NCBI GenBank assembly: GCA_001275005.1 | Contig: JWZX01003324.1 | Coordinates: 1-43,614 of the forward strand | Source of the DNA: Chrysochromulina tobinii | Lineage: Eukaryota | Reading direction: 5' to 3' | Length of the DNA stretch: 43,614 nucleotides | Shown here: one piece after another, positions 13,406-22,300 of the stretch | Position numbering within the stretch: position 1 is the stretch's first letter | How the letters are laid out: each line of letters opens with the position of its first letter | The notes under the pieces: generated by a model | Databases searched by the model: none | The model's input: the letters and a program-made list of their open reading frames with translations, nothing else | Told to the model about the DNA's origin: nothing | Made by a program: the position numbers and the translations under genes

Positions 13406-16172
13406 TCAAGCGACCGCGACGCTGCGCCGTCGCTCGGGCGATCTCGGTGCACGGCGGCTCAGCTGTGACGATGTGGCCGCAGGGGGATGCCCTTTGCCGG
13501 CGGCGGTACCTGCAAGGCTGTGCGCGGCACCGATGAATCGGGCTGCGCGCTCGGCGATCATGTTGGTGGGGAGCGCCAGCTGCGCGCCTGGGATCCGTGG
13601 CATGACGCTTGCGTCGACCACACGCAGCCCGCGGATGCCTCGCACGCGCAATTGCTCGTCCACAACGTGCCCAAGGCAGCAGCCCCCTGAGAGGCCGTTG
13701 GCCGAGTGCAGCGTCTCTCGGATGTACGCGTCCACGGCGGCGTCGCTCTGCACGTGCGCGCCAGGGTACACCTCGTCCAGGCTCACTTCGCCCAGTGCAC
13801 CGGAGGTGGCGAGCTTGCGTGCGAGTTCGATGCCCCGAGCGAGCGTCTGGCTATCCTCCGGGCTTGCGAGGTAGTTACACTTGATCTCGGGGGCCACCGA
13901 AGGATCGGCACAGGTGATGCGCACAGTGCCAGTCGAGCGTGGCCGGCAAGCGATCACCTGCAGGGTGAAGCCGGAATGGCCGTGCTGCACGCCCTTGCCT
14001 AGGAGCTCATACGCTTTCACTCCATCGGGGGATGGGCCAATCCCAGGGACGAAGCGCAGCTGAAGGTCTGGGAGCGCCGCATCCTTGGCGGGGCCGCCTC
14101 GCCCATCGGCCGATTTCCCCACACCATCAGAGCGCACAAAGGCACCATGGTCGCAGAAGGTGGTGCACAGGACGCCGCCGCCGCGCACCGCCCACTTGTA
14201 CAGCGCCAGAGGCGAGATGATGTCGAGCCCTAGCCATCCGAGAGGCTTGATCTCTGACAAGCCGTCGCGGATGGCCGAGTTGAACCCAACGGTCACAGCC
14301 GGGTGATCCTGCAATCCAGCACCAACGGCCGGAAGGGCATGCCGTAGAGGCACACCAGCCGCTGCGAGCACAGACGGAGGGCCGATGCCTGAGAGCTGCA
14401 GCACCTGAGGCGACCCAAGCGCACCCGCGGCCAAGAGCACCTCTCCGCCCGGCGCGAGTCTGATCGTCGAGCAGCTCGTCGAGCTCGCCGTGGTCCGCTG
14501 GCCCACCCCGGCAGGCAAAGCGCCGGCGGCGCTCGCGTGTCGTGCTCCGATGGCGCCGACGGCGCGCAGTGCCGCGCGCATGGCATGCGCCGCGGGCTCG
14601 GGCAGGTCAGGGGTGCGCCCCGGATCCTGGATGGCCGTGGTTTGCATGCGCCGCTCGAGGTACTTTGAGATGGCGACCCAAACGGCCGCCGCTTCGGGAG
14701 TGGCGGGTGCCGGAAGCGTCGTGTTGGGCCAGGCACCCGAGTCCGCGTTTCCAAATAAGGAAGCACCCTCGAGGAGGCACTCCGCAACAGCCAAGAGTGC
14801 TGCATCAACGGCGGTGGCGTCGGAGGCCGAGGAGCGCGCGAGGTCAATCTGCGTCCGCGGCTCTGGATGGACCGCGTCTCGAAGCACATACTCGTGGTTG
14901 CCAATGAGCTTACGAGCGGCAGTTCCCCAGTCTTCGGCGGTGCACCCAACCTCAGCCGTGTGCCAATCGCGTACCTGATTATGGAGGCGATTCGAGACCA
15001 TCACTGACGATTGACGACCATCAGGAGGCAATCAGCGACCCATCCGTGACCATCAGGAGGCATTCAGTCAGGCCAACAGCAGGTAGCCAGCGGTGAGGCC
15101 AGTCGCGTACGATTGCTTTAGAGGACGCGACGCCATTCTGCTGATGCTCGGTGCGCTCGAGACGATTCGCCAGAGCCCGCCAGAGCGGGTCGCTCTTAGC
15201 CAGCGCATGGCGCACGTGCCTATGCGCGCTCTTCAATTTCGCCGCCCGCGACGCGATCGTGACCTCCTTCACAGTCACACCGACCGCCGCGAGCTTTGCG
15301 TCGCCCGCAGCAGCTGAGGCAGCGAGCTCTACGCGTGCGACTACATATCCCGTGAGGATCGTCACATTGGGTCGGGCTTGCGCGATCGTCAAGTACGAAT
15401 TTGCACCCGTCCATCGCGTTCCATTGCGCTGTGAGAGCTCAAAACGACCGAATCCGACGGTGGCGTCGCTCGCGCCTTCTACCGCGGTGGAGAGCGCCGA
15501 ACTCCAGTCATTGAAGCCTGTCGGCTTCGGCTTCAGATCCGGGTGGATGCAGCCACGCGTGTTGTCGCACGTGCGCAAGAAGCGCGCCGAGAGCTCATGC
15601 TGGTAGTTGGGCACCTGCACTTGCATGCCGCACGTCGCCATCGGCTCCTGTTGACGAAGCTCGATGCGATCAAACTCAGCGGCGATCTCGTCCGTCGACC
15701 ACCCATTCCCCCATCCCTCATAGTCCCGCGGCGAGCCGCGAAATGCGAGCTGCGCGTTGAGGCAACTCGAACCTCCGAGCAGCTTGCCGCGGCAGAGGAA
15801 GATTCGTCTGCCCAAGCAGCCCGGCTCAGCCACCGTCTGCCAGCACCAGTCAAAGGCAGGATTTCGAAAGAGCTTGAGAATGGCCCCACTGATGCGTATG
15901 AAAAGGTTGTTGGGCGATGATGTGCCCGGCTCGATGACAAGCACACGCTTCGACGCATCCTCTGAGAGCCTCGATGCCAATACCGACCCGGCCAGGCCGC
16001 CGCCAACTATTATGTAGTCCCACTCGCCATCCGGAATCGTGCTACATGTGCGAATTAGGCTGCGCCGGTTACGCCTGACTACGGCCACTACAAGTGCCAC
16101 CACCAGCAGCGTAAACAGGCCCAGTGCCATCAGCATTGCCGAAGCGAGCTTCGATCTCAACTTTGAGATCAT
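13406..16172 (-). CDS. FAP: Fatty acid photodecarboxylase-like GMC oxidoreductase; exons 16172-15111 and 14974-13406 (876 aa)
   Basis: GMC motifs: DYIIVGGGLAG, RGKLLGGSSCLN, LAPGGEVLLAAGALGSPQVLQLSGIGP, LQDHP. FAP-type motifs: TFCDHGAFVR, LPDLQLRFVPG, PDGVKAY, FTLQVIACRPRSTG, LHSAN, VVDASVMPRIPGAQ. A phase-0 GT-AG intron (14975-15110) joins the two ORFs in frame. Start could be 16172 or 16136. Confidence 0.8.
14975..15110 (-). other. Spliceosomal intron (136 bp, phase 0) in FAP-like gene
   Basis: Minus strand ...gcaatc|gtacgcgactgg...ctccataatcag|gtacgcgattgg. Contains cctcctgatggtc repeats and restores the frame between ORFs. Confidence 0.85.
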
Positions 16173-16352
16173 TCCATTTGAACAGACGAAACTTATATTG
16201 TCGAAATTCTGAGGAGGGCGCAGCTTCCCAGTTCACTGCCCATGGGGAGGGAGCCGACTCCAGCTTGTCCGTAACCACTTTCTCAAGCTTGAGCTTCCGC
16301 GTCGTCGCTTCACGGGGTCGCGAATCCGCGCTGCGGCCGAATAGGTGGAGCC

Positions 16353-19300
16353 ATGCCGGCCATCATTCCCGATGGCGCGGCCGTTTGGATCAAGGATACG
16401 AACAAGGACAGTGTCGAACCCTTTGTCAAGGCGAAGGTAGTCAAATATACCGAGGGCCGTGGCTACACGATGTTCACGTCCGACGGCAAGGAGAAGATCG
16501 TGCGCCCAGTAGACTGTGCGCAGGCCAATCCTGATGGTATGTCGGCGCCCGACAATTGCTACCTGATCCACATTTCAGAGTCGACGATCCTCGCCAACAT
16601 GAAGGCGCGCTTTGCGAACAAGCTCATCTACACGTACACGTCCAACATCCTGATTGTCCTCAACCCTTTCCAGCCGCTTCCCATCTACGGCAACGACAAG
16701 ATGCAGCCGTACGTGAGCAAGCCGCTCGGGATAGCAGAACCGCACACGTACGCCATGGGCGAGGAGGCGTACAAGACGCTCGTCAAGACCCAGCGCAACC
16801 AGGCGCTCGTCGTCTCGGGTGAGTCAGGCGCCGGCAAGACGGAGACAAATAAGCATTTGATGACATTCCTCGCGTGGCGCTCCAAGTCGGAGACGGTGGG
16901 CAACGACATTGCTCAGGTGATGCTGCTGGCCAACCCGGTGCTTGAAGCTGTCGGCAACGCCAAGACCATGCGTAACAACAACTCGTCGCGCTTTGGAAAG
17001 TTCGTCAAGATCGCCATGTCAGAGAGGGGCGGCGTACTCGGCGCGGTGACGAACAAGTATCTGCTCGAGAAGTCGCGCGTGCCCTTCCAGTCGGCAGGCG
17101 AGCGCAACTACCACGTCTTCTACCAGCTCGTCGCGGGGCACAAGGGCAAGGCCGCGCTCGCCCTCGATAAGGGCGCGAGCTCGTTCCACTATCTCAACCA
17201 GTCCGGGACGACCGAGGTCAAAGGCGTCAACGATGCGGCGGACTTTGAGAGGCTGTGCTCGGCGATGGCGAGCACTAATATGGGCGGATCCGACCAGGAA
17301 GACATTTTCAAGCTCTTCGCCGCGCTGCTCCACTTGGGCAACATCAAGTTCAATCCGGGCTCGGATGAGGCCTCGATCTCGAGCGCGACGAGCGCCGCGC
17401 TCGCCAAGGGCGGGAGAGCTCTTCCAGGTACGCACGGACAGCACCCAGTGCACCCGAATCCGGGGGCCGTAGCCCCATCGTCCCTTGAGCGTGCCTCCCA
17501 CACAGCCCGCCGCCACCCGCCCGACCGCCGTCTCCCGATGAGTGCGTCCCTGATTGCGCGCGCCATCCCCGCGTCTTCGCAGGTGTCGAACCTCCAAAAG
17601 TGCCTGTGCGAGCGCACGATGACGACCATGGGCGAGACGATTGCGACCAAGCAGACGCCCGCGAAGGCGGCGCTCGCGCGCGATGCCCTCGCTAAGTCGT
17701 GCTACGCGCGTCTCTTCGATTTTATCGTCGAGCGCATCAACCTCTCCATGCGAGGAGCGGCCAAGGAGACGTCGACGTTCATCGGGCTGCTCGACGTGTA
17801 TGGCTTCGAGTCGTTCGCGATCAATACGTACGAGCAGCTGTGCATCAACTTTGCAAACGAGAAGCTGCAGCAGTTCTTTCTTCGCTTCGTCTTCAAGGCG
17901 GAAGAGGACCTGTACCGTTCCGAGAATGTCGCGTGGACCAAGATCGAGTATCAGGACAACCAGGGGTGCATCGACTTGATCGAGAAGATGCCTACGGGCG
18001 TGATGCGCTTGCTGGACGAGACGTGCAAGAAGCCCAAGGTCGAAGATAGCGCCTTCTGCTTGAGCGTGGCTGAGACGCTCAGGCGAAACGACTTTTTCAT
18101 GGATGCCCGCGGCGCTGGGCACAAGAACTACCGTCCCGACGAGGCCTTCGCCATCCGTCACTTTGCCGGCGACGTGTGCTACGTGGGCGAGGGCTTCTGC
18201 GACAAGAACAACGACACGCTGCATTCGGACTTCGTGGCGCTGTGCTCGGGCTCGGGCCACGGCGTGCTGCGCCAGCTCTTCGCGGAGGATGCGAAGGTGA
18301 AGAAGGCGAACACGTTCAATTCCGTCTCGCGTCGCTTCATCAACGATCTGAACACTTTGATGGAGGACCTCAACTCGACCAAGGCGCACTTTATCCGATG
18401 CATCAAGCCCAACAAGGAGCTCGAGGCGTTCAAGTTCACGCCGTCGCTCGTGCTCACGCAGCTGCGCTGCTCGGGCACCATAGACGCGGTGCAGCTCATG
18501 GCGGGCGCGTACCCGACGCGTATCCCGTACGACTCGATCTACAGCCGATATGCGAGTCAGATGCCCGACTTCGTTCGCAAGCTCGAGCCGCCGCTCTTCT
18601 GCGAGGCGCTCGCGCTTGCGCTAGAGATCTCAAACAAGGTCAGAGCTCTAGCTGACTGACGATCTGTTCAGATGGCCTCTGAAGGCCACTGGCTGCCTCT
18701 GATGGCCTTTGATGGCCACTGGCTGCCTCTGATGGCCTCTGATGACCACTGGCTGCCTCCCCGCTCAGCACTTCGCGCTCGGGCGCACCAAAATCTTCTT
18801 CAAGGCTGGTAAGGGGCAGGTGCTCGAGGAGCTAGCGGAGCGTGATCTCACCGAGGTGATCCCGGTCCTTGTCGCCAAGATCAAGCAGTGGGAAGTGAAG
18901 AAGAAGATGCAGGTTCGGCTGCAGGCGTACGCTCGCATGTTCATCTGGCGCAGGTACTTCAAGAGGGCGCACGTGGCGGTGCGGACTGTGCAGCACCGCG
19001 CGCGTGGACGCAAGATCCGCATCGAGTACCGCAAACGGCATCTCGCGTGGGTCGCGAAACGTGAGCGGGAAGAGGCAGAGCGTCGCAGGAAGGAGGCCGA
19101 AGAGCGAGCGCGCAAGGAGGCTGAGGAGCGGCGGCGGCAGGAAGAGGCAGCCGCGAAGGCCAGGGCCGAGGCCGAGGCAGCCGAAGCGGCCATTCGGGCG
19201 GCCAAGGACGCGGCGGCACGCGCAAAGGCCGAGGCCGAGGCGAAGGCGGCGGCTGAGGCTCAGGCAAAGGCCGATGCGGCGGCAAAGGCCGCGGCCAAAG

Positions 19301-22300
19301 CTGAGGCCGAGTCCAACGCGGCGGCGGCGAAAGCAAATGAGGCGGCGACCAAGAAGGCACCGACGATGGCGGACATCGAGGCGCAGGTGGCGGCCGAGGA
19401 GGCGGCTGCGCGGGAGGCGATCAAAGATACGATGGATTTGGGAGACATCGTCGTCGAGGTCGAGCTTCAACGTGGCCCCAACGGTCTTGGGCTCGATGTC
19501 GACCACTACCGCAGAGGCGCCACGATTGGGTTCATCGCGCCGGATGGCGTGGCGGCGCGCGACAGCCGTCTGCGCGTGGGGGACATGATCCGCGGCGTCA
19601 ACGGCGTCACCTGCGGTACGTACGACGAAGTCATTAATGTGATCCGTGCCTCGGGCGCCACCGTCAAGCTCACCATCTCGCGCAAGCCAGTGACGAAACT
19701 GCTCGAGACCAACATGCACATGGAGCTGGGCGCCTCGTCCCAGCGCACGTGGGACGAGTTCACCTTCCGGCTGTACTCGAACCGCGTGCTCACCTTTGAA
19801 AAGACGGAGCCGCCGGTCGTGACAGGCGAGATCGACGTGCGGCTGGCACTCGAGGTGCGCATGGTCGATGCGCCCAATGGCGGAGGGTTCCTTGAGATCG
19901 AGACCGCGTCGAAGACGTTCATCCTCCGCTCGGGCGACACGGACGTGCTCAACAAGTGGCGTCGCGAGCTGTACGAGCTGCTGCCCTACCTGCGCGCGAC
20001 CGAAGTCAAGTGTGGCTGGCTGCTCAAAAAGGGTGAGACGAGCTCCGCTGGCTTCAAACCGCGCTACTGCGTCCTCTTCTCTTCGTATCGTCTGCTGTAC
20101 TTTGATTCAGAGGCATGCACCAAGCGTAAGGGCGCCGTCGATCTGTCGGTGGCCCAGTCGGTCGAGTCGATCACGACGGCCAAGGGCCCCGGCTTCGAAA
20201 TCTCGACCCCCGGGCGCACGTGGGTCTTCGCGGCGTGCGAAAGCGACGCCAAGTCGACTGCTTCCGAGACGACCGCATGGATGGACACACTGCGCACGAT
20301 GCTCGGTGACATCCGGGAGCGCAAGCGAAAGCAGCAGATCTCCGAGGGCGTGATGCTTCTCAAGGAGGGGTGGGCCGACCTCAAGGACGAGAGCGGCGGC
20401 GGCGAGGGCGCGTGGGTGGGGCACTGGTTTGCGCTCAACTCGGCGGGCGAGCTGCGAATCTTCCCGGACGCGGAGTCGACCCAGGAGCAGATGGTGCGCC
20501 ACTCATGTTCACGGATTGTCACTGATGGTCTCTGAGTGTCCTATGATTGTCACGGATGGACTCTGTTGGTCTCTGATGGTCTCTGATGGTCTCTGATGGA
20601 CAGGTAGTGGACCCTGAATGGCCTGGATGGCCTCTGATCGCCTCTGATGGACTCCCTCAAGCGCCTCTTTGATGGCCTCCCTCATCACAGGTGCTCTCGG
20701 TCGACCTCAAGTTAATCGAGAGGGTCGAGCGCTCGAAGGGCATGGACTATTACGACTTCTGCATCGACCTGTGCTTCTCCGATAAGACGATCAAGATGCG
20801 CCCGATCGACCGCGGCGACATGCAGGCGTGGCTGGGCGTGCTGCAGACGCAACTCGCGAGCAAGCGAGAGAACACCGACAAGGGCTCGGTGATCACCATG
20901 CTGCATCAGGGCTGGATTGAGAAGCGTAGTGAGCGCGGCAAGGGGAGCGACGCGTGGAAGAAACGGTACTTCGTGCTCTGCACCAAGCAGGAGAAGGAGG
21001 GAGATGAGCTTGCGATTCACCATCTGCTCTACTATTTCAAGTCGGAGGAGAGCGCGGGCGACGTGTCAGAGGCGAATGGGTGCATTGACCTGGGCGAGGT
21101 CGAGGAGGTCAAAAAGTGCGAGAACAGGTTGATCGATCTCGTCACCGAGTCACGCGTCTGGCAGCTGCGGGCTGAGTCGAACAGCGACCAAGAGATCTGG
21201 GTCCGCCAGATCCAATCCAACGTTGGCGACGAGGCGGTCAAGAGCGGCGCGCCGGGCGGCGGCTCCAAGGACCAGCTCAAGGCAGCCGCCGGCGTCGTTT
21301 CGATCGCCAAGGCAGAGATGAAGATGCAGGTGCCCGGCCTTGACGGCCAAGCCTGCTGGAAGTCGGCCAAGTTTGACTTACAAAGCGACGGAGTGTTGCG
21401 CTGGTCGTCGAATGAGGCCCCTCCCTGGGACGCGGGAGCCATCGACATCAAGAAGGCGCTCGGCGTGTGGTTGCTCGGCCCGGCGGGATGGCGGCGGCTC
21501 GATATCATCTTGCCCGACCATCGATGGACCCTCGCGGCTGACGACGACAACCTTCTGCAGAAGTGGATCAAACTGCTCGAGAACGCAGCGCCGGAGAAGC
21601 CGGTGAGCGAGATCCGAAACGGCTGGATGGAGAAGAAGGGCGCGATGGGCGGCGGCTGGAAGGTTCGCTTCTTCGTACTCCTCTCGACGCACGAGCTGCT
21701 CTACTTCGAGAGCGATCGCTCGCCCAAGTGCAAGGGCGTCATCGACCTCAAGGAGGCAACCCAATGCACCCGCGTGGCCTCACCCGATTACAATTATGAG
21801 TTCGCCTTCGAGGTGGGCTCGCCCAAGCGCACTTGGATCCTGTGCCCGGATGACGAGCACTCCATGAAGGAATGGATGGCCGACATCAAGCAGCTGCTTG
21901 GCAAGGCGGGCCAGGCGAAGGAGAATAAGAAGCGCGCCTCGGTCCACCAGCACGGCAACCGCACGTACAACACCGAGGGCGTGGGCGAGGACGGCGGCAG
22001 CGCGGCGCAAGGCAACGGCTCGACGCCGTCGCTCAAGGCAGGATGGCTCATGAAGAAGGGCGAGGTGAACACGGCGTGGAAGAATCGTTATTTTGTGCTC
22101 AAGCCCGAGAACAAGTTCCGAGACCAGCCGAAGACACTATGGTATTATAAGGACCAGGACACGGCGCGCATGGGCAAGAATGGCTCGATGATCGAGGTGG
22201 AAGCGTCGGCGTCGATTCAAAAGGAGTCGGTCGAGGAGGCGGGCAAGTCGTTCGCCTTCGCCATCGTCACGCCCACGCGCAAGTATTGCCTGTGCGCCGT

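Follow-up and report, generated by a model that had tools for sequence, protein, structure and literature searches.

A likely phycoerythrin-derived domain inserted in a probable fatty-acid photoenzyme of Chrysochromulina tobinii

We analysed a 43,614-nt stretch of Chrysochromulina tobinii DNA (contig JWZX01003324.1 of assembly GCA_001275005.1; hereafter, the window). A minus-strand gene at 16136..13406 encodes a relative of fatty acid photodecarboxylase (FAP), a probable light-driven fatty-acid enzyme judging from its sequence, whose flavin adenine dinucleotide (FAD) domain is interrupted by an extra 219 residues. This insert is a transcribed, in-frame, exonic domain. Profile comparisons and a predicted structure indicate that it likely descends from the alpha chain of phycoerythrin (PE). 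We regard the evidence as evenly balanced on the further proposal that it is a non-covalent, bilin-type pigment-binding module with a regulatory or protective role for the flavin photoenzyme.

A transcribed, in-frame insert in a FAP-like gene

The gene consists of two open reading frames (ORFs), and the spliced ORF encodes 864 amino acids with zero internal stops. A first-pass annotation of the window had placed an insert of about 219 in-frame codons, with an intron of its own, at 14471..15263; its coordinates and length were right, and the motifs it quoted are present. The segment is 793 nt long, and removal of a 136-nt intron leaves 657 nt, or 219 codons, between AAVGVTVKE and (S)TIRLAPGGEV.

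A single 2448-nt contig from RNA run X14 covers 13555-14966 and 15103-16138, that is, both FAP halves and the entire insert, with the intron alone removed. Among the other five RNA runs, X15 has the same 136-nt-skipping joint, X12, X13 and X16 yielded junction fragments, and X11 yielded one unspliced contig only. A joint skipping the whole insert was seen in none of the six RNA runs, so the exonic status supposed by the annotation is borne out. The intron joint is absent from both DNA runs (X1 and X9, possibly the source of the window), which span the insert segment unbroken. DNA carry-over in the RNA runs looks low, since the gap at 16192-16305 has zero depth in all four RNA runs checked. GC content at third codon positions is 0.77 and 0.74 in the insert, equal to that of its flanks (0.72 and 0.75).

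The public model of this gene (KOO21913.1, 312 amino acids) joins ...NQ to DHPAV and omits both the domain and the N-terminal half, which implies that the segment is intronic or misassembled. Two features of the RNA data also count against an exonic reading: contigs break somewhere in 14321-14592 in five of the six runs, a region that includes an 80% GC stretch at 14500-14599, and intron-retaining contigs (14975-15110) occur in four of the six, at depths of 4.7-9.2. However, the public model is contradicted by the X14 contig, which runs through the skipped parts. The DNA is continuous here, two metagenome loci match the segment at 98.6% and 100%, and orthologues carry the insert within one ORF. 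We consider an artefact of this kind vanishingly improbable. Locus L001 shows only 14 differences, few for a dN/dS estimate.

The features of the gene, all on the minus strand, are as follows.

15111..16136, minus: exon 1 coding sequence (residues 1-342), with the hydrophobic N-terminus, the N-terminal half of the FAP/GMC FAD domain and the first 51 residues of the insert; ORF, CvFAP match (E = 1.7e-34) and RNA contigs
14975..15110, minus: 136-nt GT-AG intron, phase 0, within the insert; joint seen in RNA runs X14 and X15 and missing from DNA runs X1 and X9
13406..14974, minus: exon 2 coding sequence (residues 343-864 and stop), with the remainder of the insert and the C-terminal FAP half; CvFAP match (E = 6.7e-63) and RNA
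16077..16133, minus: hydrophobic 19-residue segment (Kyte-Doolittle mean 3.0) followed by RRNRR; likely membrane signal-anchor
14471..15263, minus: whole insert, residues 292-510 (219 residues when spliced), in a beta-hairpin that is a short loop around CvFAP residues 318-326
15111..15263, minus: N-terminal stalk of the insert, residues 292-342, with the family motif W-x-x-L-x-x-x-L; predicted long helix (helix 300-339 in the P0214 model)
14555..14923, minus: PE-alpha-like (globin-type) core domain, residues ~360-482, from profiles and the predicted model
14876..14911, minus: candidate pocket motif 1, K364, N368 and D375, aligned by profile and sequence with PE-alpha Lys43, Asn47 and Glu54
14606..14650, minus: candidate pocket motif 2, R451, Q453, R462 and D465, aligned with PE-alpha Arg137, Cys139 (Gln here), Arg142 (shifted, less sure) and Asp143
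14153..14155, minus: C616, aligned with CvFAP C432 (role from 10.1101/2020.06.23.166330)
14054..14056, minus: R649, aligned with CvFAP R451 (same source)

The host protein contains the GMC N and C domains (Pfam PF00732 and PF05199) and the FAD-binding GxGxxG motif. CvFAP (PDB 5ncc, 6yru and 6zh7) is the best PDB match for both halves, by a wide E-value margin for the C-terminal half (7e-63 as against 9e-34), and the protein may group with FAPs rather than with other GMCs. In the PDB alignment, CvFAP C432, R451, Y466, H572, N575 and Q620 correspond to C616, R649, Y664, H765, N768 and Q807, and all six are kept; for Y466, H572, N575 and Q620 we assume the roles generally ascribed to them. C432 and R451 are described as FAP hallmarks in 10.1101/2020.06.23.166330. 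The insert occupies a site where CvFAP has a short hairpin loop, as the annotation had supposed. The host also differs from CvFAP at its N-terminus, where a hydrophobic segment (residues 2-20) precedes a catalytic domain starting at residue ~38, apparently leaving no space for a transit peptide. Similar hydrophobic N-terminal segments (Kyte-Doolittle 1.96-3.02) are present in six of six relatives checked, and we regard the segment as a likely membrane signal-anchor.

Other FAP-like proteins share the insertion. It lies at the identical site in P0118, P0214 and P0216, and P0220 has its first part only, at the same site; P0217, P0218 and P0219 are without it. P0118, P0214 and P0216 are 61-75% identical to the window's protein over the core and 32-38% identical over the insert. 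In a tree of the core (568 columns, 10 rows, two other GMCs as outgroup and no characterised FAP among the rows), the five proteins with the insert group with P0217 in a single clade (99.7/100), whose sister is P0218 plus P0219, and P0217 is nested beside P0118 (96.9/85). These sequences suggest that the clade's ancestor gained the insert once, with likely one later loss. FAP-inserted copies also group together, as six, in a FastTree of 298 domain copies (support 0.887), the sixth, P0129, being a P0118-type fragment. A second, non-FAP GMC host, P0162, carries the domain at another site and its copy falls elsewhere in that tree, which we read from the sequences as a second, independent event. 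A full model of P0214 (predicted local distance difference test score (pLDDT) 72.6; predicted template-modelling score (pTM) 0.77) keeps the FAP fold, with a template-modelling score of 0.83 to CvFAP, and runs from a hairpin strand through a 40-residue helix and four helices to the return strand. On this model, the insert is very likely an appendage on a long helical stalk that leaves the FAP core intact.

Further observations concern introns and the neighbouring gene. Retention of the intron would put a stop at 15021-15023 and yield a 371-residue product without the pocket domain. The first 8 nt of the intron (15103-15110) recur at the start of exon 2 (14967-14974), with similarity continuing for ~20 nt, and the protein has 10-13 extra residues at this site relative to orthologues; the repeat suggests intron gain with duplication, which we take to be of the introner-like type. 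In the P0005 cluster, from a related strain or species, an extra in-frame stretch of ~31 residues follows GGEVLLAA and ends in a second VLLAA; it is absent from the window and is likely a second, unspliced intron gained with duplication. Head-to-head with the FAP gene, ~215 nt away, lies a myosin-like gene (16353-20535, plus strand) with introns near 17409-17580 and 18639-18768; sequencing runs disagree with the window at 17976 and 18079 (four of four) and, in both DNA runs, by a single base at 17408; these are likely assembly errors.

Fold, ancestry and relatives of the inserted domain

The insert was modelled with high scores (pLDDT 90.8, pTM 0.86), and the predicted model has the globin-type phycobiliprotein fold. 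Every row listed by Foldseek is a phycobiliprotein or a derivative of one, with PE alpha at the top (E = 0.018). In a targeted comparison with VIA, the model aligned with PE alpha (PDB 1b8d, 2vjh and 5aqd) over ~103-106 residues with Z 10.1-10.5. Across 48,161 chains, VIA gave Z >= 8 for two only: 1b8d_A, a PE alpha chain (Z 10.1, root-mean-square deviation (rmsd) 2.3, 103 residues aligned), and residues 278-379 of 9r0w_A, the Synechocystis glutathione S-transferase (GST) iota 1 (Sll1902; Z 9.6, rmsd 2.2, 95 aligned). Globins came next, with Z <= 7.1. The structure searches return PE alpha together with the GST-like relative that the annotation had proposed.

Profile comparisons, which do not depend on the predicted model, connect the same three groups. 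A profile search run blind on 201 cyanobacterial genomes gave three matches, all of them C-terminal extensions of ~405-residue GSTs with a CPFC motif. One such extension matches 14 PE alpha sequences in the PDB, the best at E = 7.8e-9. In HHalign, 22 distinct CPFC extensions scored 97.7% to the insert family (109 columns), 98.7% to PE alpha and 97.7% to the Iota extension, as against 10.8% for phycocyanin alpha, 0.4% for beta chains and 0.2% for reversed controls. The insert family scored 90.9% against 72 Iota-type (WCPYC) extensions, with reversed controls below 0.5%. The window's insert sequence on its own reached only 6 bits against the profile of this CPFC bridge, yet exceeded all 500 shuffles.

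Direct comparisons gave lower scores. Profile A1, built from the insert family, matched PE alpha chains at E = 0.026-0.15, gave a best E of 0.21 in four cyanobacterial genomes and reached at best 12 bits among 120 Iota-type ORFs; pairwise BLASTP of the insert with GST iota gave nothing (E = 0.44). Neither the insert nor any of 46 aligned family members exceeded the cut-off of Pfam PF00502. When prokaryote genomes were scanned directly with the insert in a tblastn-type search, none of 600 candidate stretches was confirmed, and a tblastn search of phages with P0035 found nothing. Searches of Pfam, NCBIfam and the ESM Atlas gave no match for the insert, blanks that show neither novelty nor absence. 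The idea that the W-x-x-L stalk equals the GST N-terminal extension is unsupported (HHalign 0.2%), and weak PF00502 matches of 340-360 residues, considered as a bridge family, turned out to be other proteins.

The annotation had likened the insert to the C-terminal extension of GST-like proteins and proposed a domain capture that added a regulatory or interaction module, a role that may hold. Homology to the cyanobacterial Cys-GST extension is supported by profiles and structure only, as is the capture of a domain. The insert does not, however, seem to have come straight from a GST, since its near relatives are mostly tandem domains and the GST Pfam domain is found in 0 of 149 listed relatives, as well as being absent from the window's gene. 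The annotation also missed that extension and insert alike resemble PE alpha and have a bilin pocket. Sequence comparisons indicate that the GST extension is itself phycoerythrin-like, and PMC4138524 suggests a possible PE alpha domain in the Iota extension.

Iota extensions sit on a GST domain, which the host lacks. Their Asn47 position is taken by His and their Cys139 position mostly by Asn or Ser; 5 of 120 Iota-type extensions (L012, L069, L095 and two more) have Cys at the latter. The CPFC-GST extensions (L176-L201), the closest prokaryotic relatives found, keep the pocket N, D, R and D as the insert does, but they also retain the Cys, all 23 loci having R-x-C-x-P-R-D, and occur as a single copy on a GST. 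These ~405-residue Cys-GSTs (L176:1489-2706 and L177-L201) gave 21 full-length matches in 401 genomes, plus two more distant ones, and may be GSTs that can bind a bilin covalently, separate from the Iota class with its WCPYC motif.

The domain itself belongs to a large family. With phmmer, 288 representatives in a library of 1.84 billion sequences matched at E <= 1e-3, of which 150 are listed, the remaining 138 being weaker; profile word searches, which are less sensitive, yielded 2 and 8 proteins. The insert is not a product of chance: besides these 288 homologues, P0118, P0214, P0216 and, in part, P0220 have it at one shared site. Two to ten stretches of >= 25 bits occur in 92 of 169 profile-matching proteins, a set that includes fragments and near-copies of the window's own gene. 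Pfam partners among the 149 listed relatives (E <= 1e-4) are PAS in five, BLUF in one, rhodopsin in two and GMC in two, together with three marginal matches (DUF2114 once, BssS twice). Four of the five PAS-bearing relatives contain NCRFLQ, which we take to be the LOV motif; the fifth is in a cluster with a member named Prymnesium sp. Our provisional label of a haptophyte family rests on two named organisms. The rhodopsin relatives P0112 and P0149/P0210 combine partial rhodopsin helices with two to three domain copies, and the last-helix motif residue is Lys in P0112 and Arg in P0149. The stalk residues W319, L322 and L326 are conserved in 60-69% of family copies. We conclude that the domain represents an uncurated family, without a Pfam or NCBIfam model, that is mobile, often tandem and built on a ~120-residue core; PE alpha differs from it in this tendency towards arrays and fusions.

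A candidate pigment pocket and competing explanations

In PE, the outer alpha bilin is held by Lys43, Asn47, Glu54, Arg137, Cys139, Arg142 and Asp143 (the alpha-139 pocket), and Glu54 bonds to Arg137 and Asp143 to Arg142, according to PMC5783998. K364, N368 and D375 of the insert have the same spacing as their PE-alpha counterparts. R451-x-Q453 aligns with the R-x-C of the bridge GSTs and D465 with Asp143, so that K364, N368, D375, R451 and D465 map either directly or through the CPFC-GSTs. R462 falls two residues short of the Arg142 column, within a G-H loop that is 8 residues longer. As far as the alignments can be read, the insert has no equivalent of the central Cys82/Arg84/Asp85 site.

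Five of the mapped positions are the best-conserved of the family. R451, D375, R462, D465 and N368 rank 1-5 among 147 columns (97.6-99.7% of 296 rows), Q453 ranks 11th and K364 is kept in 69%; Q384 and R389, like Q453, are nearly invariant. The 13 columns conserved at >= 90% hold six of the seven pocket positions (hypergeometric P = 9e-7; five of seven without R462, P = 5e-5), P values (1e-6 to 1e-4 overall) that are partly post hoc and indicative only, the mapping having been chosen partly after seeing conservation. In the four divergent FAP inserts, which share just 40-46% identity, the pocket N, D, R, Q, R and D are kept in four of four and K in three, and all eight invariant polar sites are kept. 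We consider that the pocket probably binds a planar dianionic ligand. A bilin is our preferred but still tentative candidate, more likely than a flavin.

The mechanism we propose is as follows. A bilin-type pigment would sit non-covalently in the retained alpha-139 pocket and would serve the enzyme as a light or pigment sensor, a tetrapyrrole sensor or an energy sink for its flavin. Emission from excited FAD overlaps the absorption of phycoerythrobilin-type bilins. As these spectra imply that any transfer would run from flavin to bilin, the domain would quench or report; a quencher or sensor is plausible, though we advance that role with considerable reserve, and an antenna feeding FAD is unlikely. 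The arrangement recalls the antenna chromophores of photolyases, as we understand them, in placing a second-pigment site on a flavin photoenzyme, but here the site would be on a separate inserted domain and the bilin would be an energy acceptor for FAD, not a donor to it.

Beyond the caveat on the P values, several points weigh against this proposal and the ancestry on which it builds. All Foldseek E-values exceed 0.001, VIA Z-scores below 13 can be common for helical domains from arrangement alone, and the direct HHalign match between the family and PE alpha is weak (44-64% local, 79.5% global). That direct alignment also places the Arg137-Arg142 loop differently, making the mapping of R462 uncertain. 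The attachment Cys at alpha-139 is replaced, by Gln in 91% of 296 rows; no column of the family alignment has a conserved Cys (highest, 26%), and the insert has a Cys for covalent attachment at neither alpha-82 nor alpha-139. No recognised Pfam partner was found in 136 of the 149 listed relatives, so that 8-9 proteins carry the whole link to light. The non-FAP host P0162 is without the FAP Cys and Arg motifs. Since P0217 sits inside the clade without an insert, the insert is dispensable, and the distance created by the long modelled stalk may be too great for energy transfer with FAD. The proposal also assumes that haptophytes make bilins.

The closest solved GST relative, 9r0w, was crystallised with flavin mononucleotide (FMN), a further point against a bilin and one that raises the possibility that the domain binds FMN or FAD where the bilin once sat, and would store or load flavin or supply a second chromophore. 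The title of the entry reads 'in complex with FMN', and its residues 278-379 are those that match the insert, but the FMN may lie in the GST part. Recognised partners of the family are mostly flavoproteins (LOV-type PAS, BLUF and GMC), P0162 suits a flavin better than a role confined to light, and the two Arg could provide ring stacking and a phosphate contact; a flavin would nevertheless leave the rhodopsin fusions and the partner-free arrays unexplained. At the positions of Asn47 and Glu54, moreover, the insert follows PE alpha and the CPFC-GSTs in keeping Asn and Asp, and GST iota has His and a hydrophobic residue there instead. We judge flavin binding a minority possibility, and give slightly less weight still to a domain that no longer binds any ligand and acts as a protein-interaction or scaffold module, its polar residues forming a structural salt-bridge network. 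The scaffold-like repeats, mostly in proteins with no other domain, would fit such a module; so would the missing Cys, and the Glu54-Arg137 and Asp143-Arg142 bonds described for PE could mean that conservation is structural. However, the top five columns in conservation are all polar positions of the pocket and outrank every hydrophobic core column bar one tie, which is unusual for a scaffold, and the near-invariance of Q384, R389 and Q453 points the same way.

It is improbable, in our view, that the insert is a tolerated passenger, a mobile domain in a permissive loop without effect, or that the host has lost its photodecarboxylase activity. The lower identity of the insert than of the core and its loss in P0217 are compatible with this, as are the intron-retaining RNAs, which would end the protein at 371 residues, and an N-terminus unlike that of plastid FAP. 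Nevertheless, the pocket residues are kept in all four divergent inserts, as are the equivalents of the six CvFAP residues in the host. We therefore retain, at the even balance stated above, a non-covalent bilin-type module as our working interpretation.

Implications for FAP and for haptophyte-type algae

The literature searched, mostly papers available without subscription, holds no description of an inserted FAP clade, of the tandem Cys-free family or of its photoreceptor fusions, and the accessible parts of PMC13436692 and PMC11673678 contain nothing on the inserted clade or the domain family. The constituent folds are known, and the resemblance between Iota extensions and PE alpha is already in print. 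What the present analysis corrects is the public gene model, to which the skipped domain and the whole N-terminal half are restored.

FAP is among very few natural photoenzymes, and its use in biotechnology is limited by photoinactivation. A conserved extra domain in a natural FAP clade marks a tolerated fusion site, and its predicted ligand pocket may mean a built-in protective or regulatory device. To our knowledge, haptophyte-type algae have no phycobilisomes. As a speculative extension, such algae would keep a PE-descended, Cys-free pigment module, shuffled onto LOV, BLUF, rhodopsin and FAP proteins and into arrays of up to 10 copies, and the FAP clade would represent the first fatty-acid photodecarboxylase with two chromophores, its bound bilin serving to drain or report the excited state of the flavin. 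The domain family connects phycobiliproteins, cyanobacterial GST extensions and eukaryotic photoreceptor fusions, and it makes testable the idea that bilin-binding, antenna-derived proteins may exist in algae without phycobilisomes.

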